Positions 31,840 through 48,935 of a stretch of 64,000 bases of DNA are shown here, piece by piece (the first letter of the stretch is position 1; each line of letters begins with the position of its first letter). This DNA is from Candidatus Omnitrophota bacterium (GTDB lineage Bacteria > Omnitrophota > Gorgyraeia > B26-G9). The stretch covers positions 5,922-69,921 of the forward strand of contig JAHJAO010000031.1 in the NCBI GenBank assembly GCA_018813905.1, given 5' to 3'. The notes beneath the pieces are model-generated. The model searched no databases. It was not told the origin of the DNA and saw only the letters and a list, made by a program, of their open reading frames with translations. Both the position numbers and the translations under genes were made by a program.

Positions 31840-31851
31840 CTTTCCCCCTTT

Positions 31852-33201
31852 TTAACTCTTTTTCTCTAAAATATTTTCTACAAAATCAGTAAAATAAATT
31901 CCCCGCGCGAATTCGTTGTTGTTTACTACCTTTTTGTGAAAAGGGATGGTTGTTTTTATCGGGCTGATGATAAATTCGTCGAGCGCTCTTTGCATGATTT
32001 TTATCGCCTCAATCCGGTCTTTGCCGTGTACAATTAATTTGGCGATCAAAGAATCGTAATATGGCGGTATGATATAGCCGCTGTAGACGTGAGAATCTAC
32101 GCGTACTCCGCGCCCGGCGGGAATGTGCAGATGCTCGATTTTGCCTGGGCAGGGCCGGAAGTCGTTTTCCGGATCTTCCGCGTTAATCCGGCATTCAATT
32201 GCCGCACCCTGCAGCTTTACTGCGTCCTGGGAATATTTTAGTTTTTTCCCGGCAGCGATGCGGATTTGTTCCTTTATCAGGTCAATTCCGGTGACCATCT
32301 CCGTGATTGTATGTTCGACCTGGATGCGCGTATTCATTTCCATAAAGTAAAATGATCCGTCGGTATCCACTAAGAATTCAATGGTGCCGGCGTTGACGTA
32401 ATTAGCTGCTTTGGCGGCCCGGATTGCGGTTTCCGCGAGCTTTTTCCTTAATTTTGGGTCTAAAGAGGGAGATGGTGTTTCTTCAATTAATTTCTGGTGC
32501 CTTCTTTGAATCGTGCAGTCCCGTTCTCCCAGCTGCAGGATGTGATTGTGTTTGTCCGCTAAAATTTGAACCTCAACATGCCTGGGTTTTTCAAAATACC
32601 TTTCCAGATACACGCTGGAACTGCCAAAATTGGCTTCCGCTTCCGCCTGCGCTGTAATTATTGAGCTTACTAATCGCACGTCGTTGTGTGCGATTCTCAT
32701 GCCCCGGCCGCCGCCGCCACTGGCTGCTTTCACAATAACCGGATAGCGGATTTTTTTCGCAATTTTTATTGCCTCATCCTTGTCCGTTACCACGTCTTTT
32801 GAGCCGGGAATTACCGGAATGCCGGCTTTGCGCATCGTGTCTTTAGCCACCATTTTGTCTCCCATAAGCCGGATATTCTCAGAGGTGGGGCCGATAAAAG
32901 TAATATGACAGGATTCGCAGATTTCCGCGAAGTGCGCGTTTTCCGCTAAGAAGCCGTATCCGGGATGAATGGCTTCGACGTCCGTGATTTCCGCCGCGCT
33001 CATTATGGAGGCGATATTAAGATAGCTTGTTGCGCTGGGGCCCGGTCCGATGCAGACGGCTTCGTCGGCAAACTGTACGTGAAGAGAATCGGCGTCGGCT
33101 TCGGAATACACCGCTACCGTGCGGATATCCATTTCTTTACAAGTCCGGATAATCCGCAACGCAATCTCTCCGCGATTGGCAATCAGAATTTTTGAAAACA
33201 T
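31852..33201 (-). CDS. accC: Acetyl-CoA carboxylase biotin carboxylase subunit
   Basis: ATP-grasp domain and biotin carboxylase motifs throughout. Confidence 0.95.
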
Positions 33202-33209
33202 AGGTTTTT

Positions 33210-33689
33210 TTAAACCGGCTCGATTTTGAATAACACCTGGCCGAATTCGACTGGATCGCCGTTATTAACCAGAATTTCTTTAACCGTTCCTTTTACTTCT
33301 GATTTTATTTCATTCATCAGCTTCATCGCCTCAATAATGCAAATTACCTGCCCGATTTCTATTTCCGTTGCGACTTCGACAAAAGATGATGCTTCCGGTG
33401 ATGGGGCGCGGTAAAAGGTACCGACCATAGGCGATTTTATTTCAACCAGATTCGACTTGCCGGCCGCAGCCGAAACTGATGTTGGTTCGTTAAACTGCTC
33501 AACTGGTGTGGCATATTCAAGACCGTTGGCTTGTGCTTTTAATCTTTCAATTACAATGTTAGGAGATTCTGAGCCAGGCAGCGTTCCCCGTTTAATCCGG
33601 ATTTTCAGGCCTTCACGCTCCAGCTCCAATTCCGTGAGATTATTTTCATTCATCAAATTAATCATCTCTTTAACCTCTTTTATGTTCAT
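33210..33689 (-). CDS. accB: Acetyl-CoA carboxylase biotin carboxyl carrier protein
   Basis: Biotinyl-lysine motif [10 protein letters not shown]. Confidence 0.9.
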
Positions 33690-33710
33690 GTGAAACTCCT
33701 TATGAAATTA

Positions 33711-34277
33711 TTAAGTTCTTGTCACCCTTTCCACATATTCTCCGGTCCGGGTATCAAGTTTTATTATATCATTTTCGGTTATGAATAAAGGAACCTGAAT
33801 TGCCGCTCCGGTTTCCAGTGTTGCCGGTTTATACGCGGACCGGGCCGTATCGCCGCGGATGCCTGGTTCGGTATGGGTTATTTTTAGCTCTAGAAATATG
33901 GGAAGAACTATTTCGATAAGTTCATTTTTATAGAAGATAACCGTTACTTCAATATTATCTTTCAGAAATTTACTTATATCGGATAATTTGTCTGCTTCGA
34001 TTATTAATTCTTCAAAAGTCTGCTGGTCAAGGAAATGGTACATATCGCCTGCACGGTAAAGGTACTGCACTTTTTTTTCTTCGATATACGCCTCTTGAAA
34101 GCGCTCTTCTACGCGGAAGGTTTTTTCGATGATGCGCTTTGTGCGCAGATTTTTCAGTTTTGTCCTTGTAAAAGCGCCGCCTTTACCGGGCTTGACTGGT
34201 TGGTAGTTGACAATGACGTATATCGCTCCCTCTAGTTCTAGAGTCAGCCCGATTTTAAACTCGTTCGCAGTGATCAT
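33711..34277 (-). CDS. efp: Elongation factor P
   Basis: KPGKGGAFTRTKLKNL near the N-terminus. Typical length of 188 aa. Confidence 0.9.
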   Translation of the reverse strand: MITANEFKIGLTLELEGAIYVIVNYQPVKPGKGGAFTRTKLKNLRTKRIIEKTFRVEERFQEAYIEEKKVQYLYRAGDMYHFLDQQTFEELIIEADKLSDISKFLKDNIEVTVIFYKNELIEIVLPIFLELKITHTEPGIRGDTARSAYKPATLETGAAIQVPLFITENDIIKLDTRTGEYVERVTRT

Positions 34278-35323
34278 TTTGAAAGAATTTTATAGCCTGT
34301 TTTTGTTACCAGCACCATATCCTCGATTCTCACTCCCCCGGAACCGGGGATATATATGCCGGGTTCAATCGTAACTACCATTGCCTGCATTAACTTCCGA
34401 TTATTTTTTTTAGATATAATTGGTGTTTCGTGAACTTCCAGGCCAACGCCGTGGCCTAAGGCATGACCAAAATATTGCTCAAGACCTTTAGCTTTTAAAA
34501 CCTGACGTGCCGTCCGCTCCAGTAATGCGATTGGCGCATGAGGCTTAATCTTTTTAATGGCGCTAAGTTGCGCGTATCTTAGGATGTTATAATATGTAAT
34601 GTATTGGGTAATTTTACCCGAAAAGAATGTTCTTGTCAAGTCGCATTTATAACCGGAATAATCAACTCCCGCGTCTATAATTACAGGTTCGTTGGGTTTT
34701 ATCGCGCGTTGCGTGGTTTTGGCGTGCGGCATCGCGGCGTTCGGTCCGGAAGCAACTATCGGATCAAAGGCAAGCCCATGCGCGCCGCCCGCTTTTAAAA
34801 ACATTTCCAGTTTGTTTTTTAAAAATAGTTCCGTAACTTTAGGCTTTACAAATGGTTTTAATAATTCGAATGCGCGTTTGGTAATGGCCAGCGCCTTTTG
34901 GATCAGGATTATCTCCTCCGGGCTTTTAATTTGTCTTTGTCTTTCCAGAACGTCTTTTATGCCGAGAAGCCGGATGTTTTTTCCTAATCTGTTTTTTATC
35001 CGGGAAAAGGCATACACGCTTACTTTGTCTGGTTCAAAACATATCGACTTTATCCTGTTTTTGACCGCCAGATTTAAAAGTGTTGCGTTTAAAGACTCTT
35101 TTATCCGGATAATTTCGAAATTCGAGTCTATCTCCCGCTTTGCCTGCAGCATAAACCGGAAATCGCCCAGGAAAAATTGACTTGACCGGGTAATTATGAG
35201 CCAAGAGTCCGTTCCGGTAAAGCCGCTTAAATATCGAATGTTCGCTCCCGGGCTTACCAGAAAGGCGTCGATGCCTTTCTGTCTTAAAAAATGCCTTACT
35301 TTGTTAACCTTTAGATTTTTCAT
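34274..35323 (-). CDS. pepP: Xaa-Pro aminopeptidase / M24 family peptidase
   Basis: HGLGHGVGLEVHE metal-binding motif. Confidence 0.85.
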   Translation of the reverse strand: MKNLKVNKVRHFLRQKGIDAFLVSPGANIRYLSGFTGTDSWLIITRSSQFFLGDFRFMLQAKREIDSNFEIIRIKESLNATLLNLAVKNRIKSICFEPDKVSVYAFSRIKNRLGKNIRLLGIKDVLERQRQIKSPEEIILIQKALAITKRAFELLKPFVKPKVTELFLKNKLEMFLKAGGAHGLAFDPIVASGPNAAMPHAKTTQRAIKPNEPVIIDAGVDYSGYKCDLTRTFFSGKITQYITYYNILRYAQLSAIKKIKPHAPIALLERTARQVLKAKGLEQYFGHALGHGVGLEVHETPIISKKNNRKLMQAMVVTIEPGIYIPGSGGVRIEDMVLVTKTGYKILSK

Positions 35324-35334
35324 TATTTAATCGC

Positions 35335-35769
35335 TTAATCGAGCAATTTTAACGCTGCTTCCAGAGCTAAAATGTAACTGTACTCGCCAAAACCGGAAAT
35401 TTGGCCCTTACTGACCGGAGCGATGAGAGAGGTATGGCGAAAGTCTTCACGGGAATAGATATTAGACAGGTGGACTTCAATAGTCGCAATTCCGGAAGCG
35501 CTGATCGCATCCCTTATGGCTACGCTTGTATGCGTATAGGCGGCGGGGTTTATAATGATCACGTTAAAATTATTGTGGGCTTTACCGATGATATCGACGA
35601 TTTCTCCTTCGTGATTGGATTGAATTATTTCCAGTTTAACATTTTTTGATTTTGCCCGGATTTTCATTTTTTTGTTTATGTTTTCCAAAGTCACTTTGCC
35701 GTAAACTGAGGGTTCCCGTTCACCTAAAAGATTAAGGTTTGGGCCGTGGATAACTAAGATTTTTTTCAT
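35335..35769 (-). CDS. aroQ: Type II 3-dehydroquinate dehydratase
   Basis: [20 protein letters not shown] and a conserved [10 protein letters not shown] segment. Confidence 0.9.
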
Positions 35770-35787: not shown

Positions 35788-37710
35788 TTACCTTGTTCCT
35801 TTTATATAAAATTTTTTAAGCTCTTCCGCAAGTTTCCATTCATTTTTTGCCGGAATATCTTTGCCCATTATATCATAAAGTATAGCTAATTGCTCATGGT
35901 AATAGGGGTTGGCCGGGTACAGCTGGGAGGCTTTTTTTATTTCTTCCAGCCCCATTTTATAATAATCGTTGCTTTTTTGTTGAAGCAGAAATACTCCCAG
36001 CCGAAAATGATAATAAGGTACAAATGGGTCAAGGCGGATTGCCTGTTTGTAGCGGGAAATAGCTTTTTGGCTGTTAAGAGGTTTATGGTCAGGATTGCCG
36101 GTTAAAGTCTGCTTTTCCGCTACGACCGCCTGTAAAAACCGGTAATGGGCGTTAAACGGATTGAACAGGACAGCTTTCTCCAATTTCTGATTTGCCCGGC
36201 CCAGATTACCCGCTAAAAAATCAGTTCTGGCCTTAAAGGACAAGTGATGGCTGATGACCGTAGCGCAATTATATAGGAAGATTGCCGAAATCAAAAAAGA
36301 TACTAAAACAGCGGCAACCTTTCTGGAAATATTACCTAAAATAAATTCTTTTCTTATCCGGCTGCCTTCCGGCTGATTGGCCAAAAATAAAGCGGCTAAA
36401 ATTGTAAAAGCGATCATAGCGTTCTGATTTATGTACAGGCTGAAATCAACAAGGTTATGGATAAAAAAACAGACCAGAGCGCAATAAAGACCGATATTGA
36501 CCATACGCTGCGGGTCGGCTTTATTTTTAACAAGCGTATTGCCGGTTTTAAATATGACAAATAAGATGCTGATAAAACTTAAAAAAGCAAATAACCCGCA
36601 TTCCGCCCAAATTTGGAGGAAGCTGTTGTGTGCCATCTTTGTTTCTTCCCCCGTCTTTGTCTTAAAATAAGGATAAACGCTGGCATAGGTGCCCGGGCCA
36701 AAACCAAAAAGCGGCCGCGACTTAATCATCCCCCATGTGGCCTTTGAATATTCGCCCCTTACGGAAAATGAAGCTTGAAAGCTGGCAAGATTAGGCATGT
36801 CCATGGTGCGGCTAAAAGAGATGATTTTAAAAAAGGCAAAGGCGGTCATTAGAATTAATAAAAAAATAAAAACCATCTTCCCCCTTTTTAGGCCTAAAAA
36901 CCCAAACAGTAAAAGCGAAATACTTATAGATACCCAGGCGCCTTTTGATTTGGTAAGCATAATCGCAAAAATAAAAGCAAGCAATGCAAAAATATAAATT
37001 GCGCATTTAAATTTATCCTGAGAAGCCGATTTCAGACTTGTTTTTAACGCGGCAAATCTGCCCAGAATGATTAAAAATAGCATGCCCAAATATCCCGCCA
37101 GCGCCGGCGGATAAAGAAAAGTGGAGAAAATCGTATTGGCATTCAAGCGCCGCAGGAAATCTCTGGAGTTTATAATGGTTTGGGGGTTTTCGTTTGCGAA
37201 CAGACGCATTTGATTAAAACCTATAAAATATTGGTATAGACCGTAAAGGAGCACGGCAACCGATGCGAACATTAACGTATTCAAAAGGAGTCTTCTAATC
37301 TCGGATGTGTTGGAATACAAATTCACGATTGTCCAGGACCAGAGGAAAAGGGATAAAAAGTAGATCAATGTCTCGATACTTACCTGCTTATTAACGGAAT
37401 ACAAAACGCCGGCCGCTAAAAATGTTAAAAACACAAAAAAACTTTTATCGAAATTCGTATAGATAATCGGTTCTTTGTCGCGGCCCAGCTTATGTATTAT
37501 AAGCAAGAAAGCGGTTAATAGGACGGCATTTTCAAAATAGATGTGCAAAAATGTCAGCGTAGCTTCACTGACAAGCGGCCGAAAAAAAAGCAGACAAAGC
37601 ATCGCCAAAGTAGTAACCTTCAAAAACGGCGCGGATATATTTAACCGCCGCCAGCTGAGCCAAACTGAAACTGCTGTGATGAGAAAAAACGCGATAGTTA
37701 ATCGTAACAT
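35788..37710 (-). CDS. O-antigen ligase (Wzy_C) family membrane protein with C-terminal TPR repeats; candidate pilin/protein O-oligosaccharyltransferase (PglL/TfpO-like)
   Basis: About 12 TM helices and a Wzy_C-like loop region. C-terminal TPR-like repeats (AISRYKQAIRLDP...). The gene is adjacent to the pilus genes. Confidence 0.6.
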   Translation of the reverse strand: MLRLTIAFFLITAVSVWLSWRRLNISAPFLKVTTLAMLCLLFFRPLVSEATLTFLHIYFENAVLLTAFLLIIHKLGRDKEPIIYTNFDKSFFVFLTFLAAGVLYSVNKQVSIETLIYFLSLFLWSWTIVNLYSNTSEIRRLLLNTLMFASVAVLLYGLYQYFIGFNQMRLFANENPQTIINSRDFLRRLNANTIFSTFLYPPALAGYLGMLFLIILGRFAALKTSLKSASQDKFKCAIYIFALLAFIFAIMLTKSKGAWVSISISLLLFGFLGLKRGKMVFIFLLILMTAFAFFKIISFSRTMDMPNLASFQASFSVRGEYSKATWGMIKSRPLFGFGPGTYASVYPYFKTKTGEETKMAHNSFLQIWAECGLFAFLSFISILFVIFKTGNTLVKNKADPQRMVNIGLYCALVCFFIHNLVDFSLYINQNAMIAFTILAALFLANQPEGSRIRKEFILGNISRKVAAVLVSFLISAIFLYNCATVISHHLSFKARTDFLAGNLGRANQKLEKAVLFNPFNAHYRFLQAVVAEKQTLTGNPDHKPLNSQKAISRYKQAIRLDPFVPYYHFRLGVFLLQQKSNDYYKMGLEEIKKASQLYPANPYYHEQLAILYDIMGKDIPAKNEWKLAEELKKFYIKGTR

Positions 37711-38780
37711 TTATTTGCCTTTTCTAAGAGCGCAATTAACAGGAGAATGCATACAGTTTCAAGCAGGACAATAAGGCATCCTGCTCCGTCAAGATTTAAG
37801 AGCAGGAGTGCGCCAAGCCCGATTGCGAAATTTAAAAGATAAATAAATAGTATAGAACTAGTGTTGCTCATGCCCATTTTAACCAACCGGTGCGAAAGGT
37901 GATTTTTATCCGCCTTGAATATGGAAACTTTCTTTTTTAGCCGCACATATATTACGCTGAATGTATCAAATATCGGGACTGCCATTATAACTAGCGGCAT
38001 GATTACGGGCCAGGGTGTCGGGTTTTTATTTGTGTAGTAGGTATTGACGATAGTAAGCAGGCTTAAAATAAAACCGATAAAGAGACTCCCGCCGTCCCCC
38101 ATGAAAATTTTGGCTGGCGGGAAATTATACTTTAAGAAACCAAGTAGAACTCCGCAAAAACAGGCCAAAATAGAAGCCACAAATAGCTGTCCGCTGCTTG
38201 CGGCGATGATAAAAAATATTAATGAAGAAATAAGGGCAACGCCGCAGCTTAAACCGTCCATGTTATCCAGCAGATTAAAGGCGTTGGTGATACCGATGAT
38301 CCAGCATACGGTTAGTACGGCGTTAACCAGTGGGTTTTGGATAAACAGGCTGACGCGTATCCCGGAGTAAAACATAAGCAGAGCCACCAGGATTTCAATA
38401 GAAAGTTTTAATCTCGCCGAAAGCTTTTTAAAATCATCGATAACGCCCATTATGAATATGGCCAGCGCCGCAAGAAAGATCATGGCAAGTTGAGGCAAGG
38501 CGGTTTTAAGTCCTTGGCTGTGGATTATAAAATCCCGCCCGAGAAATCCCGCCCGGATCGCCGAGAAATACAGGATAATGCCGATACCGATCGCAAGAAA
38601 GAAAGAAAGAAAGATTCCGGCCCCGCCTAAAAGCGGTGTTGATTTTACGTGAATTTTTCTCGCGTTATCCGGCTGGTCAAGAACTTTAAACCGTACAGCA
38701 TAATACAGCGCCAGACGCACGCAGACGAGCGATAGGAGAAAAGAAATGAGAAAAATAAACAAATAAGCTATATACCACAT
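37698..38780 (-). CDS. Glycosyltransferase family 4 polyprenyl-phosphate sugar-1-phosphate transferase (WecA/MraY-like)
   Basis: ITNAFNLLDNMDGL and VFMGDGGS motifs. Confidence 0.8.
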   Translation of the reverse strand: MWYIAYLFIFLISFLLSLVCVRLALYYAVRFKVLDQPDNARKIHVKSTPLLGGAGIFLSFFLAIGIGIILYFSAIRAGFLGRDFIIHSQGLKTALPQLAMIFLAALAIFIMGVIDDFKKLSARLKLSIEILVALLMFYSGIRVSLFIQNPLVNAVLTVCWIIGITNAFNLLDNMDGLSCGVALISSLIFFIIAASSGQLFVASILACFCGVLLGFLKYNFPPAKIFMGDGGSLFIGFILSLLTIVNTYYTNKNPTPWPVIMPLVIMAVPIFDTFSVIYVRLKKKVSIFKADKNHLSHRLVKMGMSNTSSILFIYLLNFAIGLGALLLLNLDGAGCLIVLLETVCILLLIALLEKANKCYD

Positions 38781-39955
38781 CGCGATATAAGGTTTTGATA
38801 CAGAGCGTTTATGTCATCCACCATTTTTTTTGCGCCAAAATTTTCTCGCGCCAGGCGTTGCCCATTACGGCCGAACTCTCTTGACTTGTTTTTGTCGGTT
38901 AAAAGCTCGATTATGCGATCCGCTAAATCCGCGCTGTCTTGTGGTTTTACCAGATAGCCGCTTGAGCCGTGTTTTACGATATCCCGCGCTCCGTCAATGT
39001 CAAAACAGACGCTGGGCACCCCTAAAAGCTGCGCCTGGACTACGGCGCGGGGTAAACCTTCATGCAGAGATGCGTGTGCGAGAACATCCATCACCTCTAG
39101 ATATCGGGGAACCAGATCCGGCGTTATTAATCCCGCAAAAATCACATTCTTACCTAAGTTAAGCCGAAAAACTTCCTTTTGCAGTTTTTCCTTTAAGATG
39201 CCGTCGCCGACAAAAAGAAATTTGACACCGGGAATTTTTTTTGCAACTCGCACTGCGGCATCAATAAGATACCTGTGCCCTTTCTGGTAAAACAAGCGCG
39301 CGATTGTGCCTACTACCGGCTGATTTTCCCCGATGCCAAGTTTTTTTTTAAACGCATCTTTTTCATGTCCATCCGCGGTGTACTTTTCCAGGTTGATTCC
39401 GCTGAAAATGCGGATAAACTTAGCTGTTGGCGCGATTTTTGCCGAAACCGCGTTATCGATGAGTGTGCCGCTTACGCAAATAATTTTATCGGTAAAGGCG
39501 GCCGCGAACCGTTCGAGCATTATATAGAGGTTATTTAAAACCGGATTTTGATGTTTAAAAAAAGGTAATCCGTGTATGGTATGAATAATCAAAGGCACCC
39601 CGGCTAATTTCGCGGCGCATCGGCCTAAAATTCCCGCTTTTGAACTGTGCGTATGGACAATGTGATAGCCTCCCTTTTTGATAAATAAATAAATGCGTAC
39701 CAGGGCAATCAGATCAATCACCGGATTTATATTCCGGACAAGTTGCGGGAGAACCTTAAAATCTGTAATGTTACGGGCCTCATCCTCAAGACTCCCTTCC
39801 GGGCCGAGGGTTTGTCCGCAAAGCAACCCCGTTTCATAGCTGCCCGTACTGTTTAAACCTCTTAGGGTAATTAAAGTATTTTCCTGCGCCCCTCCAATTA
39901 TCAACCTGGTTATTATATGCAAAACTTTGCATTTATGTGTCGGTTGTGTTTTCAT
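38768..39955 (-). CDS. Glycosyltransferase family 4 (GT1 fold) protein
   Basis: The N-terminal domain carries GGAQ (Rossmann-like GT-B), and EGLP lies in the C-terminal half. Confidence 0.8.
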   Translation of the reverse strand: MKTQPTHKCKVLHIITRLIIGGAQENTLITLRGLNSTGSYETGLLCGQTLGPEGSLEDEARNITDFKVLPQLVRNINPVIDLIALVRIYLFIKKGGYHIVHTHSSKAGILGRCAAKLAGVPLIIHTIHGLPFFKHQNPVLNNLYIMLERFAAAFTDKIICVSGTLIDNAVSAKIAPTAKFIRIFSGINLEKYTADGHEKDAFKKKLGIGENQPVVGTIARLFYQKGHRYLIDAAVRVAKKIPGVKFLFVGDGILKEKLQKEVFRLNLGKNVIFAGLITPDLVPRYLEVMDVLAHASLHEGLPRAVVQAQLLGVPSVCFDIDGARDIVKHGSSGYLVKPQDSADLADRIIELLTDKNKSREFGRNGQRLARENFGAKKMVDDINALYQNLISRCGI

Positions 39956-39964
39956 TAATCCAAA

Positions 39965-40480
39965 TTACTTTTTTCTCAATTCCAAAACATATAGATCACC
40001 GTCTTCCATTAAGATTACGGCCTCTTTCTCGATATCTACTACGGTTTTGCCGGAGATCACATCCCCGATTTTAACAATACGCGAGTTGATTATTGCCGAA
40101 GGCACGTCTTTGTCCATCAGGATGCCGCTTATTTTAAGATTTAATTCCGGCTTTGCCTTAATCTTATCGGTGAGGGCAAGTTCGGTATTTTTTGAAGGCA
40201 AGAAGGGATCACGTATTTTGGCTGATTCCGGTAAAGAGAGAGTTTTTGAAGCTGAAACGGTTACTGCTGTTTTTAGTGCTGCGTCTTCAAGCGGCGGAAC
40301 TATTAAGTTGGTAACCGGATACTGCTTTTTTTGTGAGACGGACCATTTGGTTAAAAAGAAGTTCAAGGCGAAAATGACAATAATCGCCAAAAAGGACAAA
40401 ACAATTTTTTCCGGGGTGGAAAAACGTTTTTTGCCGACCAAAATGTAAATTTTTTTTAAGATTTCTTTTGTCTTTTTCAT
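39965..40480 (-). CDS. PilP-like type IV pilus assembly protein (N-terminal TM anchor, C-terminal beta domain)
   Basis: TM anchor, then a C-terminal segment AIINSRIVKIGDVISGKTVVDIEKEAVIL resembling the PilP beta-sandwich. Its position, after pilO, also fits. Confidence 0.5.
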   Translation of the reverse strand: MKKTKEILKKIYILVGKKRFSTPEKIVLSFLAIIVIFALNFFLTKWSVSQKKQYPVTNLIVPPLEDAALKTAVTVSASKTLSLPESAKIRDPFLPSKNTELALTDKIKAKPELNLKISGILMDKDVPSAIINSRIVKIGDVISGKTVVDIEKEAVILMEDGDLYVLELRKK

Positions 40481-40508: not shown

Positions 40509-41075
40509 TCATTTAAATAAAATAGCCAAATTTAAACGCACTGATATATTCGGCCGCTTATTTACGGCAATGCTGAGCAGCTCGGGCATTACCGGCAGTT
40601 CTTTTATCTTTTCAAAAAAAAGGTAAAGGTTTTCAAAGCGCGTGTTGATATCGATTTCTAAAACCATGGTGCCATAAGCTTCTTTGATTTTAAATTCTTT
40701 AGGGCCTAAAGATTTTATTTCGAAATCGGCTTCGTTTGCCAGATGCGTGATTTTCTCCAGCATAAACGAAAAGTTCTCTTTGCTGGGTAGTTTAGCTTCC
40801 GCTTCGGTGATTTTGGCTAAATAGGAGTTTTTTTTGTATTCAATTTTTCTTAAGATCTCACCGATGTTCCTGTCGCCGGGGTATTCGATGGTCTGGATGA
40901 TTTCGATTTTACTGTTTAAATCTTTTAGCTCCTCAAGAAGCGCTTCAGCTTTTTGGGCATGAGATTTGTAAATATAATCGTAATAAAAATTAAAAAACAG
41001 CGCGATAATTCCGACTACGCCTAAAAGCTTATATTTTTTATCAATAGGCGGAAGTTTTATTTTAGGCAGTTCCAT
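40509..41075 (-). CDS. PilO-like type IV pilus biogenesis protein
   Basis: Single N-terminal TM helix plus a coiled-coil. The gene lies directly downstream of pilMN. Confidence 0.55.
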   Translation of the reverse strand: MELPKIKLPPIDKKYKLLGVVGIIALFFNFYYDYIYKSHAQKAEALLEELKDLNSKIEIIQTIEYPGDRNIGEILRKIEYKKNSYLAKITEAEAKLPSKENFSFMLEKITHLANEADFEIKSLGPKEFKIKEAYGTMVLEIDINTRFENLYLFFEKIKELPVMPELLSIAVNKRPNISVRLNLAILFK

Positions 41076-41080: not shown

Positions 41081-42679
41081 TTACCTTTTAGAAATTGTAA
41101 TTTTAAAATAGATATTCGCTTCTCCGGCGTCTATTTTTTCTTCCGCGGTTCCGAGAGTGACATTTTTAAAATGCGGGAGCGTTTCCAGTTTTCGCACGAA
41201 TTCTATAGCCAGGATATTAGTTTTAGCCGCGCCGTTTAAGATCAGCGTTTTGTCGTTTTCGTTCAAACTAAAGTTATTCAACCAGACCCCCTCCGGGATG
41301 CTTTCGGTTATGCCTTTTAAAATTTTCAGCCATGATTCCTTGGTATCCTGGATGCTTTTTAAGAAATCCAGTTTTTTGAAGAGTTGCTGTTCGCTTTCCC
41401 AAAGTGTAATCAATTCCTGCTTTTCGCGTTTTTCTTTTGTCAGTTTTTTTTCTAAGTTTATTACCCGCGTGTACAGGAGGAACAGTGTCGCGATAAGCAA
41501 AACCGGGATAATTTTAATAAGCAGAATTTTAAATTGGCGTTTGGTGTCTTTTTTAAATTCGGCCGGCAGAAGATTCGGGCGCTTTGCGTCGCCGCTGGTT
41601 AATGCCGCGCCGATTGCCGCCGCGAAAAAAGCCATAAATTCTTCAAAATTAACAAAAGCAGTCTGGTCAAATAATAATCCGTTGAACGGATTGGCGGTTT
41701 CGGTAAAAATTCCCAATTCCTCGCTGACGAATTTTTCTAAATTTATGAGCCGGGAACCGCCGCCGTAAAACACCATCCGGTCGATTCTATCAATATGGAA
41801 TTGACCTTTATAATAACCGATAGACCGGCTTATCTCCGAGGTCATTTGTTTTAAACTCGCGGCAATCGTTGCGTAATATACCGCGTTATCGCTTAAGCCG
41901 TATTTGATTTTTGCCTGTTCCGCTTCCTCAAAACTAATCCCCGATTCTTTGGCTATTATTTCGGTAATTGTGTCCCCGCCAAAGAATATCTCGCGGGTAA
42001 AACGCAGTACGTTATTGTTGAATATATTTATTTTGGTCGTTTTGGCGCCGATATCAATCAGGGCAATAGTATCTTCTTCTTTCCAGAGATTGGATTTCTG
42101 AAAAACATTCCAGAGGCAGAACGGTTCCATGGTTATTTCTTTTATGTTTAACCGGTTGCGGGCGTAAAAATGCATGGATTCCTTTATTTCTTCGGTCTTA
42201 GCGCTGATCACCTCCAGCTCCACATTTTTAGCGCCGGCGCGGATTATTTCGCCGCAAACCAGAAAATCAATAGTGGCTTCTTCTATCGGATAACTGATAT
42301 TTTGCTCCATCTCCCACTTCACCGATTCTTTAAGTTCGTTGTCCGGCATTAACGGCAGAGACAGGTTTTTAATGTTTAATGAAGGAGTCTTAATTATCGC
42401 GCACACGTTGTTTGATGCGCTTGTTTTTAATTGAGTATAGGCGTTTTTTAATGCGGCATTAATATTTTTTTGCAAGGTGCCGGCTGCTTCATCTCCCTCT
42501 TGTTTTTGGACCTCGGCGATACCGATACTTAAAAGCCGAGTGCCGATCGGCGCCTCTTTTAAAACGACCACCTTGATAAATCTGGTACCGACATCAATGC
42601 CCACAAGCTTTGCTCCGGGCTCAAAGATGTTGATTTCTTTATCTAATTTGCTGGTGATCTGTTTTATTTTAATATTCAT
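41081..42679 (-). CDS. PilM-PilN fusion protein (actin-like ATPase domain fused to PilN membrane domain)
   Basis: PilM-type N-terminus LVGIDVGTRFIKVVVL, the internal TM segment ILLIKIIPVLLIATLFLLY, and a PilN-like C-terminus. Confidence 0.8.
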   Translation of the reverse strand: MNIKIKQITSKLDKEINIFEPGAKLVGIDVGTRFIKVVVLKEAPIGTRLLSIGIAEVQKQEGDEAAGTLQKNINAALKNAYTQLKTSASNNVCAIIKTPSLNIKNLSLPLMPDNELKESVKWEMEQNISYPIEEATIDFLVCGEIIRAGAKNVELEVISAKTEEIKESMHFYARNRLNIKEITMEPFCLWNVFQKSNLWKEEDTIALIDIGAKTTKINIFNNNVLRFTREIFFGGDTITEIIAKESGISFEEAEQAKIKYGLSDNAVYYATIAASLKQMTSEISRSIGYYKGQFHIDRIDRMVFYGGGSRLINLEKFVSEELGIFTETANPFNGLLFDQTAFVNFEEFMAFFAAAIGAALTSGDAKRPNLLPAEFKKDTKRQFKILLIKIIPVLLIATLFLLYTRVINLEKKLTKEKREKQELITLWESEQQLFKKLDFLKSIQDTKESWLKILKGITESIPEGVWLNNFSLNENDKTLILNGAAKTNILAIEFVRKLETLPHFKNVTLGTAEEKIDAGEANIYFKITISKR

Positions 42680-42699: not shown

Positions 42700-43137
42700 T
42701 TAAGAGCTGCTGATTTTAGATAAGCCCGTAGTTGAGAAAACGTTTATCGTTAATGAATCGGAAGAGCTATTGCTGCGAATAGTAATCACGGACGATACAT
42801 CGGTGTCTCCTCGCGGTGAAAAAGAGGTATCCGTTGCTCCCGTTATATTATTATCCAGGCTTACCGTGGTAATCGTCCCGATAAGCGAGCCTGTGGCCGG
42901 GTCTCTTTTTTCTATGGTGTAAGTATCCGCGTTTACATCAAAATCGAATTTATAGTTAAAATGTTCGACTACAGCCAGTTCGCGGTAGGAGCGCAGGTTC
43001 GAAAGCAGTATCCAGCCGTCCTTTTTTAAAGAAGAATAATCAATATACGAACGAAATACAGGCAGGCCCAAAAACGCGAAAACCGCAATCACCGAGAGAA
43101 CAATAAGTAATTCTATCAGGCTAAATCCGCTTAGCAT
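42700..43137 (-). CDS. Type IV pilin (prepilin-type N-terminal cleavage/methylation domain), likely major pilin
   Basis: The class III signal MLSG|FSLIELLIVLSVIAVFA has Glu at +5. The start is chosen at the internal Met; the ORF extension upstream is probably untranslated. Confidence 0.75.
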   Translation of the reverse strand: MLSGFSLIELLIVLSVIAVFAFLGLPVFRSYIDYSSLKKDGWILLSNLRSYRELAVVEHFNYKFDFDVNADTYTIEKRDPATGSLIGTITTVSLDNNITGATDTSFSPRGDTDVSSVITIRSNSSSDSLTINVFSTTGLSKISSS

Positions 43138-43328
43138 CTTCCCCCGATACCGGCGCGCAGGTCCTTTTAAAAAATGATTTAACATATTTATGCAAAAGGA
43201 GTTTCGACTCTTTTTTGTTAATTTTAACATTATCAAAAATTATAGTCAAGGAAAGTTTTAGTTTGTTATGAGCTTGACACGCCGGTAAAGCAATGATAAA
43301 ATTAAATCGTATTTTATTTTTATAACTT

Positions 43329-43832
43329 ATGCAGAATAAGGGATTTACATATTTAGAAGTTTTGCTGGGCGTGATGCTGTTGGGGTTAATTTTAATTCCG
43401 CTGTTGTCTCAGTTCTATATCGGGTTCCAGGGCAATAAAAATGCGACACTGGTAACCCAGTCCGTGGATTTAGCAAGTGACCTGATGGAAGAAATCAAGT
43501 CCCGCCGTTTTGATGAAAACGAGTTTCCGGATGATCCGGTTCCGGCTGTAAGCCTCGGTACAGATGCGGGAGAAAATGCAACCGATCGGACTACTTTTGA
43601 CGATATTGATGATTATAACGGCTGGCAGTCTTGCCCACCAAAGACAATTGATGGCAATGCCCTCACCGACTTCTCTGATTTTACCAGGAAAGTAACCGTA
43701 ACTTATGTAATACTAAGCGGCTCGAATTGGGTCGCCTCCGGCACGGCTACTCATTATAAAGAAATTAATGTAACTGTCACGCATCCAGATGTTAACGATA
43801 GGGTTTTAGAAACTATCGTTTCCCATTATTAA
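43329..43832 (+). CDS. Prepilin-type pseudopilin / minor pilin
   Basis: MQNKG|FTYLEVLLGVMLLGLIL with Glu at +5. Confidence 0.7.
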   Translation: MQNKGFTYLEVLLGVMLLGLILIPLLSQFYIGFQGNKNATLVTQSVDLASDLMEEIKSRRFDENEFPDDPVPAVSLGTDAGENATDRTTFDDIDDYNGWQSCPPKTIDGNALTDFSDFTRKVTVTYVILSGSNWVASGTATHYKEINVTVTHPDVNDRVLETIVSHY

Positions 43833-43837
43833 ACTTT

Positions 43838-44398
43838 ATGCTAAAAAAGATATCCGCCCGCAGCGCTCATAAAGAGTCCGGATTAAGCCTGGTTGAGGTT
43901 CTGATCACTATTGCGATCCTGGCCGTAGTCCTGTTTCCTATTTATGAATTTTTAAGGCAAGGGGCGTTGTCCTGGCAGATTGGTGAAAATAAAACCGAAG
44001 TTACGCAGAATGCGCGTATTGGCCTGGATAAGATGTGTAACGAGATAAAACATGCCCGTGCATTTTACACGCTAGGCTCTTCCCAAGTCCGATTCTGGTG
44101 GAAAGATTTAAACGATGATGAACTCGCCGATGCGAACGAAATCATTACCTATAACTGGAGCGGGACTTCCGGTGACGATTTAACCCGGAAGTTTGATGCG
44201 GAAGCCGAAGCTACTCCCCTGGCCAATTATGTGGATAGCTTCGAATTTAAATACTATGATATTCTGAGCGCCGAAACAGCCGCTCTTGACGCTGTGCATT
44301 TTATAACCGCGACGTTGCGGATTAAAAAAACCGCGCAGGAGTTTGATTATACGGCGATAATGCGTAAAGCCGTATACCCGAGAAATATGAATATTTGA
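43838..44398 (+). CDS. Prepilin-type pseudopilin / minor pilin
   Basis: ...ESG|LSLVEVLITIAILAVVL with Glu at +5. Confidence 0.7.
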   Translation: MLKKISARSAHKESGLSLVEVLITIAILAVVLFPIYEFLRQGALSWQIGENKTEVTQNARIGLDKMCNEIKHARAFYTLGSSQVRFWWKDLNDDELADANEIITYNWSGTSGDDLTRKFDAEAEATPLANYVDSFEFKYYDILSAETAALDAVHFITATLRIKKTAQEFDYTAIMRKAVYPRNMNI

Positions 44399-44401
44399 AC
44401 T

Positions 44402-46243
44402 ATGAATACAAGACAAAAAAATAAAGGAATCGTTTTACTGCTTGTCTTAATCGTAATAATGGTTTTATCGCTTTTGGGAACGGCTTATTTGGGTTCGATC
44501 CTTTCAGAGAGCGGTATTGCGCGCAACCAGGAAAACAGCGAAAAGGCGTTTTTTATCGCGGAAGCTGGCATTAACCGCGGTTTAAAACATATAATGGATT
44601 ATCCGGATATCTCGCTTTTACCTTGGATGGTTACCGAAAACATGACCGCCGGCCATTATATCGTAACCGCAGCCGAAGCCCCGGATATCGGGGAAGGTTA
44701 TGTGCGCATTACCTCTGTGGGTTACGTGGATAATGTCAGCCGAATATCGGAGATCGTTGTTTTTATGAATGCCTGGACACATGCTTTGATGTCCAATACG
44801 GATATTACTTATTCCGAGACGTCCAGCGGTTATGTCAATGGCGATGTGCATGCGAACGGTTCTGTAGCCGGGATTGCCGCAACATCCGGACTGGATTATG
44901 TGGCCGGTTCGCGCGACGCGCGGGGTGATGATGCCCGGTTTGAAATAAAAAACAATACGGGATTTGATGTTACACTTACGGCCCTGACCGCGACCTGGAC
45001 ATCCCCCACGGCTTATTATGAGACAATCAATCTGGACGTGAATCCGGGGACTAATTACGGTAATGTTTGGAGATATCAGCAGGCCGGAAATGTTCGTGCG
45101 GGAAGCGGAGATAAATCCGTATTTAACCAGGGAAAAACCGTAATTGTCCCGGCAAACAGTATTGTTATTGTGGATATCCTGAATTTCCGTACGAATCAAA
45201 CCGGAGGCGGCGGCGCTCAGCAAAACATGGATAATACCCGTTTTACCATCACGACCTGGGCGGGAAGTATTTTTCATACCGCAAGTGTTCCTTTAGAAGG
45301 AGAAGGCGCAGAAGTGGTGATTACAGGTAAAATCACCCAGGGAGCATTAGGCGATCCGCTGATTAAAATGCCTTTGGTTGTGCCGGAAAGGTATTATGCG
45401 GACCGGACTTTTTATTATGACGGAGATTATGTGTTTAACGGCATTGAAGGGCAAGCTAGTTCTTATCGGGACGAAGGGTTTTATGTTACCGGAAAAGTTA
45501 TTTTAGATAACAGCTTTACTAATATGACCTTTAATTATTGCAGCATTTTTGCCGAAGACGGAATTGAAATCGGGCCGCAGCGCAATGGCACTTTTGATTA
45601 TGTACTCGATTCTACCGTGGGCCGGCAAAAAGATATCGCGTTCCAAATGAAAAATGAATCCGGGCAGTCGCTCAGCGTCTCTTCGGTTTCTTTTACCTGG
45701 GACGGAGACAATAATAACCGCTATCAGTCCATTGATGCCGCGGTTAGCGGCGGAACTGATTATGGCACGGTCTGGAACGGAAATGCTTCTAAGAATACAA
45801 TAGTAAACTTTTCTTCCGCGATAGTTGTTCCGGTTGCAGCCACTGTGAACTTTACCGTGCATTTCAGCAGGAATACCGCTTATTCTTTCCTAAGCCGGTT
45901 TTTTGCGAGTAGTATTGAATACGCTTCTGCAATCGTGGAAGAAGGCAGGCTTCCTAACCTTGTGTTCCAAGGCCGGCGTGAATATGCCGCGCTCTCTACT
46001 CAGGAAGGGGATATTTTGGAGTACGGGACAAAAGACAAAGGCGATATGCAGATGCAGGGTATAATCTATTCTCAGGAAGGGACGGTGGAGTTTAATAACA
46101 TTACTTTAGACGGCGCGATTGTCGCCAACCGCATCAATCTGATTAAGGATTTTGATATCGAATACAAAAGCCGCTATGTCCCCAATCCCCCGCCCGAATA
46201 CATCGCGGGGCTTTCAATCCTTGACTGGCAGGAAAATTATTAA
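44402..46243 (+). CDS. PilX-N-terminal-domain-like large minor pilin / pilus tip protein with an internally duplicated domain
   Basis: The N-terminal hydrophobic helix (KGIVLLLVLIVIMVLSLLG, no Glu at +5) is PilX-like. Two internal repeats of about 90 aa are present (..TW..Y..I..DV..GT.YG.VW...). Confidence 0.6.
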   Translation: MNTRQKNKGIVLLLVLIVIMVLSLLGTAYLGSILSESGIARNQENSEKAFFIAEAGINRGLKHIMDYPDISLLPWMVTENMTAGHYIVTAAEAPDIGEGYVRITSVGYVDNVSRISEIVVFMNAWTHALMSNTDITYSETSSGYVNGDVHANGSVAGIAATSGLDYVAGSRDARGDDARFEIKNNTGFDVTLTALTATWTSPTAYYETINLDVNPGTNYGNVWRYQQAGNVRAGSGDKSVFNQGKTVIVPANSIVIVDILNFRTNQTGGGGAQQNMDNTRFTITTWAGSIFHTASVPLEGEGAEVVITGKITQGALGDPLIKMPLVVPERYYADRTFYYDGDYVFNGIEGQASSYRDEGFYVTGKVILDNSFTNMTFNYCSIFAEDGIEIGPQRNGTFDYVLDSTVGRQKDIAFQMKNESGQSLSVSSVSFTWDGDNNNRYQSIDAAVSGGTDYGTVWNGNASKNTIVNFSSAIVVPVAATVNFTVHFSRNTAYSFLSRFFASSIEYASAIVEEGRLPNLVFQGRREYAALSTQEGDILEYGTKDKGDMQMQGIIYSQEGTVEFNNITLDGAIVANRINLIKDFDIEYKSRYVPNPPPEYIAGLSILDWQENY

Positions 46244-46246: not shown

Positions 46247-47851
46247 ATGGAATTCGCACAGCTTATTACCCGAATGTTTAAACTTCGCGCCTCCACCGTG
46301 CATATTGCCGCGGGCATATCTCCCCTGTTTAATATCCACGGGCGCCTGGTGAAAAGCGATATCGCCCCTTTCGATAGCGGAACAATAAAACAGCTCTCTT
46401 CGGCTTTGATGAATAAAGAGCTTCTGGACAGATTTAAAAAAAATAACGCCGTAAATTTTATCTGCCAATATGAAAATATCGGCAGATTCCGGGTGAGTTT
46501 TTTTCGGCAACGGGGAGATATTTCCGGCGTTATAAAAAGTATGCCGGAATCTATTCCTTCGTTTGAAGAATTGAACCTGCCGCAGATTATAAAAGATAAA
46601 GTTCTTCGGCTGCGCAGCGGCTTAGTCGTCATTACCGGCCCTTCCGGATGCGGCAAGTCCACGACCCTTGCGGTTATCCTCAATCTTATCAACACGCAGC
46701 GGCCCTGCCACATTGTAACCCTGGAAGACCCGATCGAGTATTTCTTTGAGCACAAAATGGCTTTAATATCCCAGCGTGAAATCGGGTTGGATACGCATAG
46801 TTACCCAAAGGCGATTCGCGAAGCTACGCGCCAGGATGCGGATATTATCATGATCGGCGAGATGAGGGATATGGAAACCATTGATGTGGCAATGAGTGCG
46901 GCGGAATCCGGCTGCCTGGTTTTGGCGACGATGCCGACCGCGGATAGTGTGCAGACAATCTATCGCATTGTTACTTCTTTCCCCTCGGAAAAACAGCAGC
47001 AGGTCTATGTGCAAATGGCGGAAACTTTACAAATGGTAATATCGCAACAGCTGGTTATGCATAGTGACGGCAAATCCCGCGTGCCGGCGGTGGAAGTAAT
47101 GGTAGTTAGCGAAGCGGTAAGAAACCTGATTCGGAACCGCAACATACACCAGATACCTTCCGCGATAGAAAGCGGCAATACTTCCGGCATGCAGTCGCTT
47201 GATCAGGCCTTGCACGCGCTTTATGAAAAACATATGATTTCTGAACTCGAAGTCATAACCAAGTCCGTTACGCCCGTACAAGCCACAAGACACATAAGCC
47301 GGGTGTCTATCCCCCCACCCGAAAATATTTCCGGACCAGGGTTTTTGGATGTGGGCGAAGAGATAATGCCTATTGATAAAAAGATGATAAAATATAAAGC
47401 TAACTTAACCACGGGCCAGGAGGGGTATTGGACGTCATCTTTGCCGGTGGTGTTTAATAATGAAGGTATGGTTTTGTCGGTTGCTCCGGGATTACATGTC
47501 GAACGCATCTATGTTTCCGATTTTAATATTGTCGGAAAAAAAACGGTTTCGTTTGAACTGGCCAGAAAACTGCTTTTAAGATTCAAGCTGGAATTGGACG
47601 AAAGCGATGCGCTAAAAAATGTGGACGAGCTTTGTTGTCTAGAGGTAAAGATATTTACCCAGCCGGAGACAGCTCAAGCGGCGAGTTATAATAAAATAAA
47701 TCTTAAATTCCCCTTACAATTAAATGAAAAATGGCATACTTGGGTTATTAATATTCCCCAACAAGCTCAGGGCAAAATGTTGAAAATCAGCATGTTCGAG
47801 TTCCCGAACTTCTTGACAAGGGTTTTGATAAGCGATATCATATTTTTCTAA
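46247..47851 (+). CDS. PilT/PilU-family ATPase with ~190-aa C-terminal extension of unknown function
   Basis: Walker A GPSGCGKSTT plus an Asp box and His box in the first ~345 aa. The remaining C-terminus has no recognised motifs. Confidence 0.8.
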   Translation: MEFAQLITRMFKLRASTVHIAAGISPLFNIHGRLVKSDIAPFDSGTIKQLSSALMNKELLDRFKKNNAVNFICQYENIGRFRVSFFRQRGDISGVIKSMPESIPSFEELNLPQIIKDKVLRLRSGLVVITGPSGCGKSTTLAVILNLINTQRPCHIVTLEDPIEYFFEHKMALISQREIGLDTHSYPKAIREATRQDADIIMIGEMRDMETIDVAMSAAESGCLVLATMPTADSVQTIYRIVTSFPSEKQQQVYVQMAETLQMVISQQLVMHSDGKSRVPAVEVMVVSEAVRNLIRNRNIHQIPSAIESGNTSGMQSLDQALHALYEKHMISELEVITKSVTPVQATRHISRVSIPPPENISGPGFLDVGEEIMPIDKKMIKYKANLTTGQEGYWTSSLPVVFNNEGMVLSVAPGLHVERIYVSDFNIVGKKTVSFELARKLLLRFKLELDESDALKNVDELCCLEVKIFTQPETAQAASYNKINLKFPLQLNEKWHTWVINIPQQAQGKMLKISMFEFPNFLTRVLISDIIFF

Positions 47852-47861
47852 GAGGACGCTT

Positions 47862-48935
47862 ATGAATATTTTTGAGTTTATCGATCAAATAATCGAACAG
47901 AAAGCCTCGGATTTGCATATCGTTGCCGGAGCACCGCCGGCGATACGCGTTAACGGTCAGCTTGTTTTTTTCGAGCAAAGTAAGCTGACGCCCGATGAGG
48001 CAAAAACTCTCTGCTACGAACTGTTGAGCGATGAACGTAAAGTAAAGTTTGAAAAAGATAAAGAGCTCGATTTCTCCTATTCTTATAACAGCAAGAGTAA
48101 GAATTTATTCTGCCGGTTTCGCGTGAACCTCTATTGGCAGCGCGGCAGCGCGGCGATGGCGCTGCGGTTTATTGCCAATGAGATATTGGCCTTTACCAGT
48201 CTGAACCTGCCTCCTATACTCAAAGATATTTCCCGCCTGCGCCGGGGATTGGTTTTGGTTACGGGCGCAACCGGTAGCGGCAAATCTACGACTTTAGCTT
48301 CCATGGTCGATTTGATAAATAAAGAACGCAGCTGTCACGTTATTACCCTGGAAGACCCGATAGAATATTTTCATACGCACCAGAAATCACTTGTTTCACA
48401 GCGGGAAATCGGAGAAGATACCGCATCCTTTTCCTTGGCTTTGAGAGAAGCGGTAAGGCAGGATCCGGATGTTATCCTCGTTGGCGAAATGCGGGATTTG
48501 GAAACGATAAGTATCGCGATTACGGCCGCGGAAACCGGGCATCTGGTTCTGGCTACGCTCCATACCACCGATGCGGTACAAACCATAGACCGCATTATCG
48601 ATGTTTTTCCTCCCCACCAGCAGCAGCAGGTGCGTACGCAGATTTCCATAACCCTGCAGGCGGTAGTCGCCCAGCAGCTGGTGATGTGCGGTGACGGGAA
48701 GACGCGGGTGCCGGTTGTGGAAATAATGGTGGTTAATCCGGCGATAAGAAACCTTATCCGCGAGGGAAAAACTTACCAGATATATTCGGTTATTGAAACC
48801 GGACGCGACCAGGGCATGCAGACGCTGGATCAGGCCTTACAGGATTTGATTTCCAGAAAACTTATTACTTATAATGAGGCGTTTGGCGTGACGCGTGACC
48901 CGGAAAATTTGAGAAAGAAACTCGAAAACAGCTGA
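47862..48935 (+). CDS. pilT: Type IV pilus twitching motility ATPase PilT
   Basis: Canonical PilT of 357 aa with Walker A GATGSGKSTT and AIRNLIREGK. Confidence 0.9.
   Translation: MNIFEFIDQIIEQKASDLHIVAGAPPAIRVNGQLVFFEQSKLTPDEAKTLCYELLSDERKVKFEKDKELDFSYSYNSKSKNLFCRFRVNLYWQRGSAAMALRFIANEILAFTSLNLPPILKDISRLRRGLVLVTGATGSGKSTTLASMVDLINKERSCHVITLEDPIEYFHTHQKSLVSQREIGEDTASFSLALREAVRQDPDVILVGEMRDLETISIAITAAETGHLVLATLHTTDAVQTIDRIIDVFPPHQQQQVRTQISITLQAVVAQQLVMCGDGKTRVPVVEIMVVNPAIRNLIREGKTYQIYSVIETGRDQGMQTLDQALQDLISRKLITYNEAFGVTRDPENLRKKLENS

Follow-up and report, generated by a model that had tools for sequence, protein, structure and literature searches.

A candidate O-glycosylation module next to pilus genes

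We analysed a 64-kb stretch of contig JAHJAO010000031.1 from a Candidatus Omnitrophota bacterium (hereafter the window; strands and coordinates refer to this whole stretch). Three adjacent genes on its minus strand encode a GT4 family glycosyltransferase (GT), a polyprenyl-phosphate sugar-1-phosphate transferase of the MraY/WecA family, and a Wzy_C/WaaL-fold ligase with C-terminal tetratricopeptide repeats (TPR). The closest database protein is 96% identical and likewise bears the name Candidatus Omnitrophota. The trio may form a protein O-oligosaccharyltransferase (O-OTase) module, for which pilins are the foremost candidate acceptor; we put the probability of this reading at about 0.4. The gene content, the fold of the ligase, its conserved catalytic residues, the predicted topology of the TPR domain and the synteny patterns are directly supported. 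A protein acceptor is favoured because the TPR domain is predicted to be periplasmic, because the same architecture occurs in lineages without lipopolysaccharide (LPS), and because of the precedent of WsfB. Pilins lead among the candidate acceptors because of a pilus operon in Peptococcaceae and a probable ancestral linkage in Omnitrophota.

The trio would be a compact pathway that primes, extends and transfers a short lipid-linked glycan. The WecA/MraY-type enzyme would load a sugar-1-phosphate onto undecaprenyl phosphate (Und-P) at the cytoplasmic face of the membrane, and the GT4 would attach a second sugar. A flippase encoded elsewhere would then bring the glycan, linked to undecaprenyl pyrophosphate (Und-PP), to the periplasmic face, where the Wzy_C enzyme with its 14 transmembrane (TM) helices would transfer it en bloc by means of an Arg/Arg/His site of the WaaL/PglL type. 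The periplasmic TPR domain may dock the acceptor, probably a protein and not lipid A. The type IV pilins of the co-operonic pilus genes are the foremost candidates, possibly along with other envelope proteins. What we infer is the chemistry of the sugars, the flippase, a protein as the acceptor and pilins as the target. The general logic, by which a Wzy_C ligase makes up an en-bloc glycosylation module together with an initiating transferase and a GT, had been put forward in an earlier note on this DNA and is upheld.

The Wzy_C/TPR ligase

The ligase gene (35788..37710, minus strand) encodes a protein of 640 amino acids (aa). Its Wzy_C domain, at residues 241-380, scores 81.8 bits in Pfam against a cut-off of 31.7, which places the protein in the superfamily. 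The families proposed in the earlier note for all three products (Wzy_C with TPR, polyprenyl-phosphate transferase and GT4) were confirmed by Pfam and NCBIfam. The AlphaFold2 (AF2) model of the ligase has pLDDT 83.9 and pTM 0.88, and its top Foldseek match in the PDB is WaaL (7TPG_B, E 2e-5, probability 1.0, TM(target) 0.55). A profile of the membrane core matches the same chain with E=1.5e-9. No match was obtained in a phmmer search of the PDB with the TM core alone, WaaL being reached only by the profile. In the profile alignment to CmWaaL, R318 corresponds to R265, H361 to H313, and the GFGPGTF motif to GVGVGQF. R318, GFGPGTF and H361 lie in a large periplasmic loop (residues 298-368; 36607..36819, minus strand) delineated by hydropathy and the model. 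Together with R188, to which a catalytic role is given by position only, they are invariant across 13 homologues.

Hydropathy and the model agree on 14 TM helices, and the loops follow the positive-inside rule. As four TM helices lie downstream of the catalytic loop, the TPR domain is predicted to be periplasmic, on the catalytic side of the membrane. This domain (residues 491-640; 35791..36240, minus strand) consists of about four repeats detected by Pfam TPR_11/TPR_17. The TPR helices span residues 503-632 in the AF2 model, and the domain terminates in a conserved KKGTR tail. It is homologous throughout the family, Peptococcaceae included. TPRs mediate protein-protein contacts. C-terminal TPR motifs have been described in WsfB, a predicted S-layer O-OTase, and in PglL (review, PMC2943079), which sets a precedent for a Wzy_C protein with TPR as a protein-directed enzyme. 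The TPR domain was also considered as a secretin pilotin of the PilF/PilW type. This is not favoured, as TIGR02521 is matched only at 20.8 bits, far from its cut-off of 154, and the domain is kept in Peptococcaceae, monoderms in which no secretin is expected.

The Arg/Arg/His set is common to WaaL and PglL (Schulz et al., PMC3643930), and thus it is proof of an active enzyme but not of which acceptor is used. Two motifs that flank Wzy_C in O-OTases of the PglL/PglS type, PglL_A (PF15864) and Wzy_C_2 (PF11846) (PMC3643930, PMC12645811), were absent at E<=0.01 in a Pfam scan of the 640-aa protein, which counts against the proposed module. However, both motifs are also missing from the pilin-specific O-OTases TfpO and TfpM (2025 review, PMC12645811), and WaaL is the sole relative with a solved structure; therefore the comparison of PglL with WaaL is not decisive.

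One alternative is that the 640-aa protein is the equivalent of WaaL, a ligase of the LPS O-antigen or outer core, and that the WecA-like enzyme and the GT4 build a short O-unit. Among solved structures, that of WaaL of Cupriavidus metallidurans (7TPG) is the closest in both fold and sequence, and WaaL has the catalytic residues in common with the 640-aa protein. On the other hand, WaaL has neither a periplasmic TPR domain nor the two additional TM helices. The WaaL of the 7TPG study reportedly has 12 TM helices, a cytoplasmic C-terminus and no TPR. The gene context and the phyletic spread of the family, described below, also bear on this alternative, and on balance we consider it unlikely. 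The protein is best filed as a member of a TPR-bearing Wzy_C ligase family.

The initiating transferase and the glycosyltransferase

The 360-aa transferase (37698..38780, minus strand) is the predicted initiating enzyme. It matches Pfam Glycos_transf_4 (PF00953) with 120 bits and has the features of the MraY/WecA family: the DD motif (GVIDDF) and the segment NAFNLLDNMDGL (NxxNxxDxxDGL) are conserved in 18 orthologues. Its score against TIGR02380, the model of the UDP-GlcNAc:Und-P GlcNAc-1-P transferase WecA, is 115 bits, below the cut-off of 326, and thus no sugar specificity can be assigned to it.

The GT4 (395 aa; 38768..39955, minus strand) contains both halves of the GT-B fold, Glycos_transf_1 (PF00534, 129 bits) and Glyco_transf_4 (PF13439, 59 bits). 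All its NCBIfam equivalog scores are below the respective cut-offs, the highest being 143 against 409 for TIGR03088. The EX7E motif is replaced by E-x7-Q at residues ~303-311, and this is conserved in the Omnitrophota orthologues except L019, which has E. The GT4 presumably acts on the lipid-linked primer at the cytoplasmic face.

Another possibility is a Wzy-type polymerase that builds a surface polysaccharide from a disaccharide repeat, and weak matches of the GT4 to the HpsO and HpsP models would agree with it. In such a case the TPR domain would serve as a periplasmic export scaffold, and the polymer's export or use would be coupled to the pilus machinery, as proposed for the cyanobacterial hormogonium polysaccharide. 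Indeed, Wzy_C includes polymerases besides ligases, TPR scaffolds occur in polysaccharide export according to work cited in a review (PMC2943079), and the gene adjoins pseudopilin and PilMNO genes. However, the HpsO and HpsP matches are far below the cut-off and reflect generic GT4 similarity, and both the fold and the way Arg/Arg/His are arranged agree with a ligase, WaaL. Near the trio we found no flippase, chain-length regulator or exporter; genes of Wzx, Wzz/PCP and OPX are likewise missing from its surroundings in the window and from orthologous loci. A polymerase is quite improbable.

The pilus gene array

The array is transcribed from the minus strand in the order prepilin, PilM-PilN, PilO, PilP-like protein, GT4, WecA/MraY-type transferase, Wzy_C/TPR ligase. 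The first gene encodes a minor pilin of the GspH/FimU type (42700..43236), recognized by its N_methyl motif; its true start is likely at 43137. Next come a PilM-PilN fusion of 532 aa (41081..42679; PilM_2 146 bits, PilN 46.7 bits, TIGR01175 165 bits) and PilO of 188 aa (40509..41075; Pfam PilO 38.9 bits). The PilP/GspC-like protein of 171 aa (39965..40480) has weak matches to CdsD_C, T2SSC and GspC_delta, all below the cut-off, and its place after PilO is kept in orthologous loci. As the earlier note had it, the trio is co-oriented with the pil genes and immediately follows them: the GT4 starts 9 nt after the stop codon of the PilP-like gene. Both junctions within the trio are 13-nt overlaps, and the overlap of the WecA-like stop with the start of the Wzy_C gene is kept as far as Abyssubacteria. 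The trio is predicted to be co-transcribed. The ligase gene, named in the note as the first of the three, is in fact the last in the order of transcription.

On the side away from the pil genes, the ligase gene is followed after 18 nt by aroQ (35335..35769, minus strand), and then by pepP, efp, accB, accC and asp23. Thus the tight spacing runs on into housekeeping genes and is by itself no sign of a tie between the trio and the pil genes, which tells against a functional pairing read from this locus. A scan of the region 33-44 kb found 28 promoter-like sites (23.7 in shuffled sequences) and 14 terminator-like sites (14.2 in shuffled sequences), neither number being above chance, and it revealed no operon boundaries besides the divergent region at 43.2-43.3 kb.

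Further along the same array, approximately 5 kb downstream of the ligase gene, there are the heptose-pathway gene gmhA and an hldE-C-like gene, which also occur in locus L044. This would fit a WaaL equivalent, as would the fact that the module behaves as a core-genome envelope function. However, neither a waa heptosyltransferase nor any other core gene is adjacent to the trio, and gmhA and the hldE-C-like gene are separated from it by aroQ, pepP, efp and accBC. Moreover, another Omnitrophota genome has a separate hypervariable O-antigen cassette with a ligase of its own (preprint 10.64898/2026.05.20.726742).

Divergently from the array, on the plus strand, lie genes of three minor pilins of the I, J and K types (167, 186 and 613 aa; 43329..46243), recognized by N_methyl and PilX_N matches, the latter in the 613-aa protein. 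The prepilin and these three pilin-like genes constitute an H-I-J-K set of minor pilins. Two genes of PilT-type ATPases (534 and 357 aa; 46247..48935, plus strand; Pfam T2SSE 124 and 168 bits) close the pil block. No major pilin, PilB, PilC, PilD or PilQ gene was found within the window.

The earlier note had taken the pilin next to the trio for the major one. This has to be corrected: Pfam GspH matches were found in four of six members of the prepilin family, and the AF2 model of the prepilin (pLDDT 88.6) best matches EpsH, FimU and XcpH, which rules out a major pilin. The nearest pilin gene lies approximately 5 kb upstream of the ligase gene, and thus the adjacency to the major pilin typical of TfpO and TfpM is not seen here. 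That the neighbour is a minor pilin, and that its C-terminus is not conserved, are further points against pilins as the acceptor. The protein ends in SKISSS in the window, where its orthologues end in TES, VTP, TGP, MRE or ISK. The C-terminal serine was considered as evidence for an acceptor site and was dropped either way, the residue not being conserved.

In all, three PilT-type ATPases are encoded in the window. One is a PilZ-PilT fusion (17225-18619, minus strand); of the two others, both on the plus strand, that at 46247-47851 has a C-terminal extension of ~190 aa, and that at 47862-48935 is a plain PilT. The K-type (PilX_N) minor pilins are 613-666 aa long in some Omnitrophota and ~350 aa in others (window 44402-46243, plus strand; L002 1912-2961; L004 2084-3133; L006 880-2880), which implies a large variable insert. 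The AT skew turns positive (+0.145, +0.035) only over the polytopic membrane genes, at 36001-40000; the probable cause is that codons for hydrophobic residues, read from the minus strand, are rich in T. Rfam and tRNA scans of the window yielded two tRNAs only.

Conservation in Omnitrophota

Orthologues of the trio are present in more than 12 other Omnitrophota genomes, and thus these are real genes and not chance open reading frames (ORFs). The order pilin-PilMN-PilO-PilP-GT4-WecA-WzyC is kept in roughly a dozen distinct Omnitrophota genomes, among which the identity of the Wzy_C proteins falls to 32-42%. In the close relatives L001, L002, L004 and L007 the whole 20-kb region is collinear; since the housekeeping genes are equally so, synteny in these genomes was discounted as functional evidence on its own. 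The linkage to the pil genes outlasts rearrangements on both flanks. In L006, L013 and L014 the aroQ flank is replaced and the trio is still joined to the pil genes, and in L019 the minor pilins are inverted to the same strand, giving H-I-J-K-MN-O-P-GT4-WecA-WzyC.

There are two exceptions. In L016, from genome JBDRJV01, the pil block of ~9 kb is wholly absent, and Memo/AMMECR1 is followed directly by GT4-WecA-WzyC-aroQ. In L010, from genome CAYTGV01, the trio is intact and the pil block is reduced to a scar. In a distance (neighbour-joining) tree without bootstrap support both loci fall inside the pil-linked clade, which suggests that the linkage of the trio with the pil genes is ancestral to the Omnitrophota clade. 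At the same time, the intact trio in L016 and L010 means that it does not depend on an adjacent pil block. Thus the pilus link proposed in the earlier note is plausible and persistent in Omnitrophota, and it is strengthened by the Peptococcaceae operon described below; what does not hold is a strict dependence, as the trio outlives the loss of the pil genes in two lineages.

In the scar of L010 (4583-7717), PilT is reduced to its final 63 residues, and PilX is frameshifted and lacks its N-terminus. Then come 1.25 kb of non-coding DNA, in which a small membrane ORF (~65 aa) occurs twice, and directly after this the trio.

Homologues outside Omnitrophota

A profile search of 1.84 billion representative sequences identified 2,207 clusters (50% identity) at E<=1e-30. 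The top 150 clusters are mostly of 550-750 aa and match end to end. Its members come from Omnitrophota, Abyssubacteria, UBP13, Chlamydiota, Armatimonadota, Bacillota and Actinomycetota. The named members, from Omnitrophota, Chlamydiota, Ca. Theseobacter and Actinomycetota, are all annotated as "O-antigen ligase family protein". We found no characterised member, and a search of a literature library found no paper that describes the family or its link with pili.

The closer relatives from outside Omnitrophota (24-31% identity) are never located beside pil genes. In L008, L021, L023, L044, L047 and L042 the ligase gene stands beside GT genes and aroQ-pepP-efp-accBC. The gene order is five GTs-WecA-WzyC/TPR-aroQ-pepP in Abyssubacteria, GT2-WzyC/TPR-aroQ-pepP-efp-accB-accC in UBP13, GT4-WecA-(P-type ATPase)-WzyC/TPR in L021, and GT4-GT4-WecA-WzyC/TPR-aroQ-pepP-accBC…gmhA-hldE-thiC in L044. 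The WecA gene adjoins the WzyC gene in L036. Locus L035 (1-11198) contains genes of three YfhO proteins, GT2, WzyC/TPR, GT2, WecA, GT4 and efp, and in L037 (8001-14071) GT4-WzyC/TPR is followed by genes of TMEM260_N and PMT_2 proteins.

A wider view was obtained from 47 metagenomic loci of at least 6 kb, in which pilus genes were scored within 10 kb; the scan used a profile from an 8-sequence alignment, a diverse 16-sequence alignment being too divergent. WecA and/or GT4 genes neighbour the ligase gene in at least 19 of the 47 loci. Genes from the set aroQ/pepP/efp/accBC were found on the same strand in at least six loci, and accC on the opposite strand in six more. Pilus genes were observed in only three of the 47, all of them Omnitrophota orthologues. 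Thus the deepest conserved unit is WecA, with or without GTs, and Wzy_C/TPR, commonly beside aroQ-pepP-efp-accBC.

These observations weigh against a dedicated pilin glycosylation system. Conservation of the synteny in relatives, which the earlier note proposed to check, holds for roughly a dozen Omnitrophota genomes and fails in the closer relatives from other phyla. The note had also counted it towards a refutation if the three genes belonged elsewhere to a larger LPS or O-antigen cluster unrelated to the pilin; this is partly the case, since in Abyssubacteria, UBP13 and unnamed lineages they lie in GT clusters by aroQ-pepP without pil genes. In addition, many bacteria have type IV pilus (T4P) genes in linkage with aro genes, and part of the co-localisation of the trio with the pil genes may be inherited gene order. 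The loss of the pil block in two lineages and the many pil-free relatives are the reasons why our confidence in the proposed module is limited.

The same data bring forward a different target: the trio may be a protein O-OTase that acts on other proteins of the envelope (in the S-layer, the outer membrane or the periplasm), the adjacency to the pil genes being inherited and functionally meaningless. Loss of the pil block leaves the trio intact, and in most lineages the family resides within the aroQ-pepP-efp-accB-accC-asp23 backbone, away from pil genes. Pairing of the ligase with TMEM260_N and PMT_2 type GT-C proteins in L037 points in the same direction, and so does WsfB, a TPR-bearing Wzy_C protein with a predicted S-layer target (PMC2943079). 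However, drift can hardly explain a Peptococcaceae homologue located between pilD and minor pilin genes, and the linkage in Omnitrophota survives rearrangement on either side. We regard a purely non-pilin target as rather doubtful.

The backbone aroQ-pepP-efp-accB-accC-asp23 (28071-35769, minus strand; also L008, L023 and L044) is itself conserved in several phyla, and repeatedly has the Wzy_C/TPR gene just before it. Its order resembles that of the aroQ-papA-efp…accB-accC-yqhY region of Bacillus subtilis. Extracytoplasmic GT-C-type proteins flank the Wzy_C/TPR gene elsewhere, namely TMEM260_N and PMT_2 in L037 and the three YfhO proteins in L035. The latter locus also encodes a separate TPR protein near the Wzy_C/TPR gene.

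A pilus operon in Peptococcaceae

A homologue from a Dehalobacterium metagenome-assembled genome (MAG), P0033, aligns with the family from residue 49 to residue 620, TPR region included (hhalign probability 99.9, E 2e-32). Its gene is situated inside a T4P operon, between PilD and a pilin gene. Ca. Formimonas warabiya (Peptococcaceae), whose genome is complete, encodes a relative with 66% identity to P0033, and the gene order there is aroE-MerR-PilB-PilT-PilC-pilin-pilin-PilD-[WzyC/TPR]-pilin-125 aa-pilin-PilX-PilM-PilN-PilO…aroC-aroK. Of these, the four that come next to the ligase gene on its downstream side encode homologues of the window's minor pilins H, I, J and K. Both genomes belong to one family, and thus they count as a single independent case. 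A relative with 33% identity occurs in a mobile-element context instead.

Peptococcaceae are monoderms and have no LPS, and thus lipid A-core cannot be the acceptor there. One more full-length homologue carries the name of Actinomycetota, again a lineage without an LPS acceptor. A family of WaaL enzymes would be expected only in LPS-bearing diderms and with no extra periplasmic domain, and the Wzy_C/TPR family departs from this description. These full-length members in lineages without LPS weaken the case for the WaaL equivalent discussed above.

The flanking aro genes suggest that the adjacency to aroQ seen elsewhere could be a remnant of an old neighbourhood of pilus and aro genes. A broader hypothesis may be built on this. 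The Wzy_C-TPR proteins would be a fifth, broad class of O-OTases that originally resided in a module of minor pilins and PilMNO; this arrangement would persist in Peptococcaceae and Omnitrophota, the TPR domain would dock pilins or PilMNO, subunits would be glycosylated on entering the pilus assembly machine, and the members beside aroQ-pepP-efp in other phyla would be remnants of the old neighbourhood of pilus and aro genes. This hypothesis seems unlikely.

Comparison with known glycan transferases

The proposed module was compared with four groups of known systems. PglL and PglS (Neisseria, Acinetobacter; general and ComP-specific enzymes, respectively) share the Wzy_C core with Arg/Arg/His, where R215/R288/H338 of E. 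coli WaaL correspond to R224/R298/H349 of PglL (PMC3643930). They also use Und-PP-glycans built by an initiating transferase and GT4-type enzymes, and their genes often lie near pilin genes. In contrast, the 640-aa protein lacks PglL_A and Wzy_C_2 and is distinguished by 14 TM helices and a clear periplasmic TPR domain of four repeats, and its gene is linked to PilMNOP and minor pilins, not to a substrate pilin.

TfpO (PilO) and TfpM of Pseudomonas and Moraxellaceae are closer in that they are Wzy_C enzymes without PglL_A or Wzy_C_2 tied to T4P genes. However, their genes are directly downstream of the modified major pilin, whereas no major pilin is near the ligase gene here and the neighbouring pilin is GspH/FimU-like without a conserved C-terminal serine. 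TPR has not been described in TfpO or TfpM.

WsfB of Paenibacillus alvei is a predicted protein O-OTase of a monoderm and combines Wzy_C with a C-terminal TPR (PMC2943079); the likeness is one of described architecture, and WsfB differs in that its target is an S-layer protein and its gene belongs to an S-layer glycan cluster. WaaL differs in its acceptor, lipid A-core, whereas the Wzy_C/TPR family reaches lineages without LPS. Thus, the module works like an en-bloc pathway of the PglL/TfpO type, falls outside the PglL/PglS and TfpO groups, and differs from WaaL in topology and domains.

To our knowledge, Proteobacteria are the source of nearly all bacterial O-OTases described so far (PglL, PglS, TfpO, TfpM), enzymes of value both to the study of pili and to the production of glycoconjugate vaccines. 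If the Wzy_C/TPR ligase is a protein O-OTase, en-bloc O-glycosylation would extend to many uncultivated phyla and to monoderm pili, and the trio would be a compact primer-extender-transferase system testable in E. coli. The built-in periplasmic TPR domain could explain how the acceptor is recognized. If it is an LPS or polysaccharide enzyme, the finding is an ordinary one.

Other features of the window

Two tandem paralogous Cys-rich proteins of ~105 aa are encoded at 55656-55973 and 55989-56312 (minus strand), with the N-terminus KKNCWEHKNCGRQPGG…; they have no Pfam match and adjoin tRNA-Ala (55037-55112). A free-standing ORF similar to LAGLIDADG_3 homing endonucleases (2202-3047, plus strand) lies at the left end of the window, where GC is lower (0.39-0.41). 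A DUF11 lipoprotein (5749-6579, minus strand) has a weak match to Chlamydia OMP6-like proteins, which fits an envelope of the PVC group.

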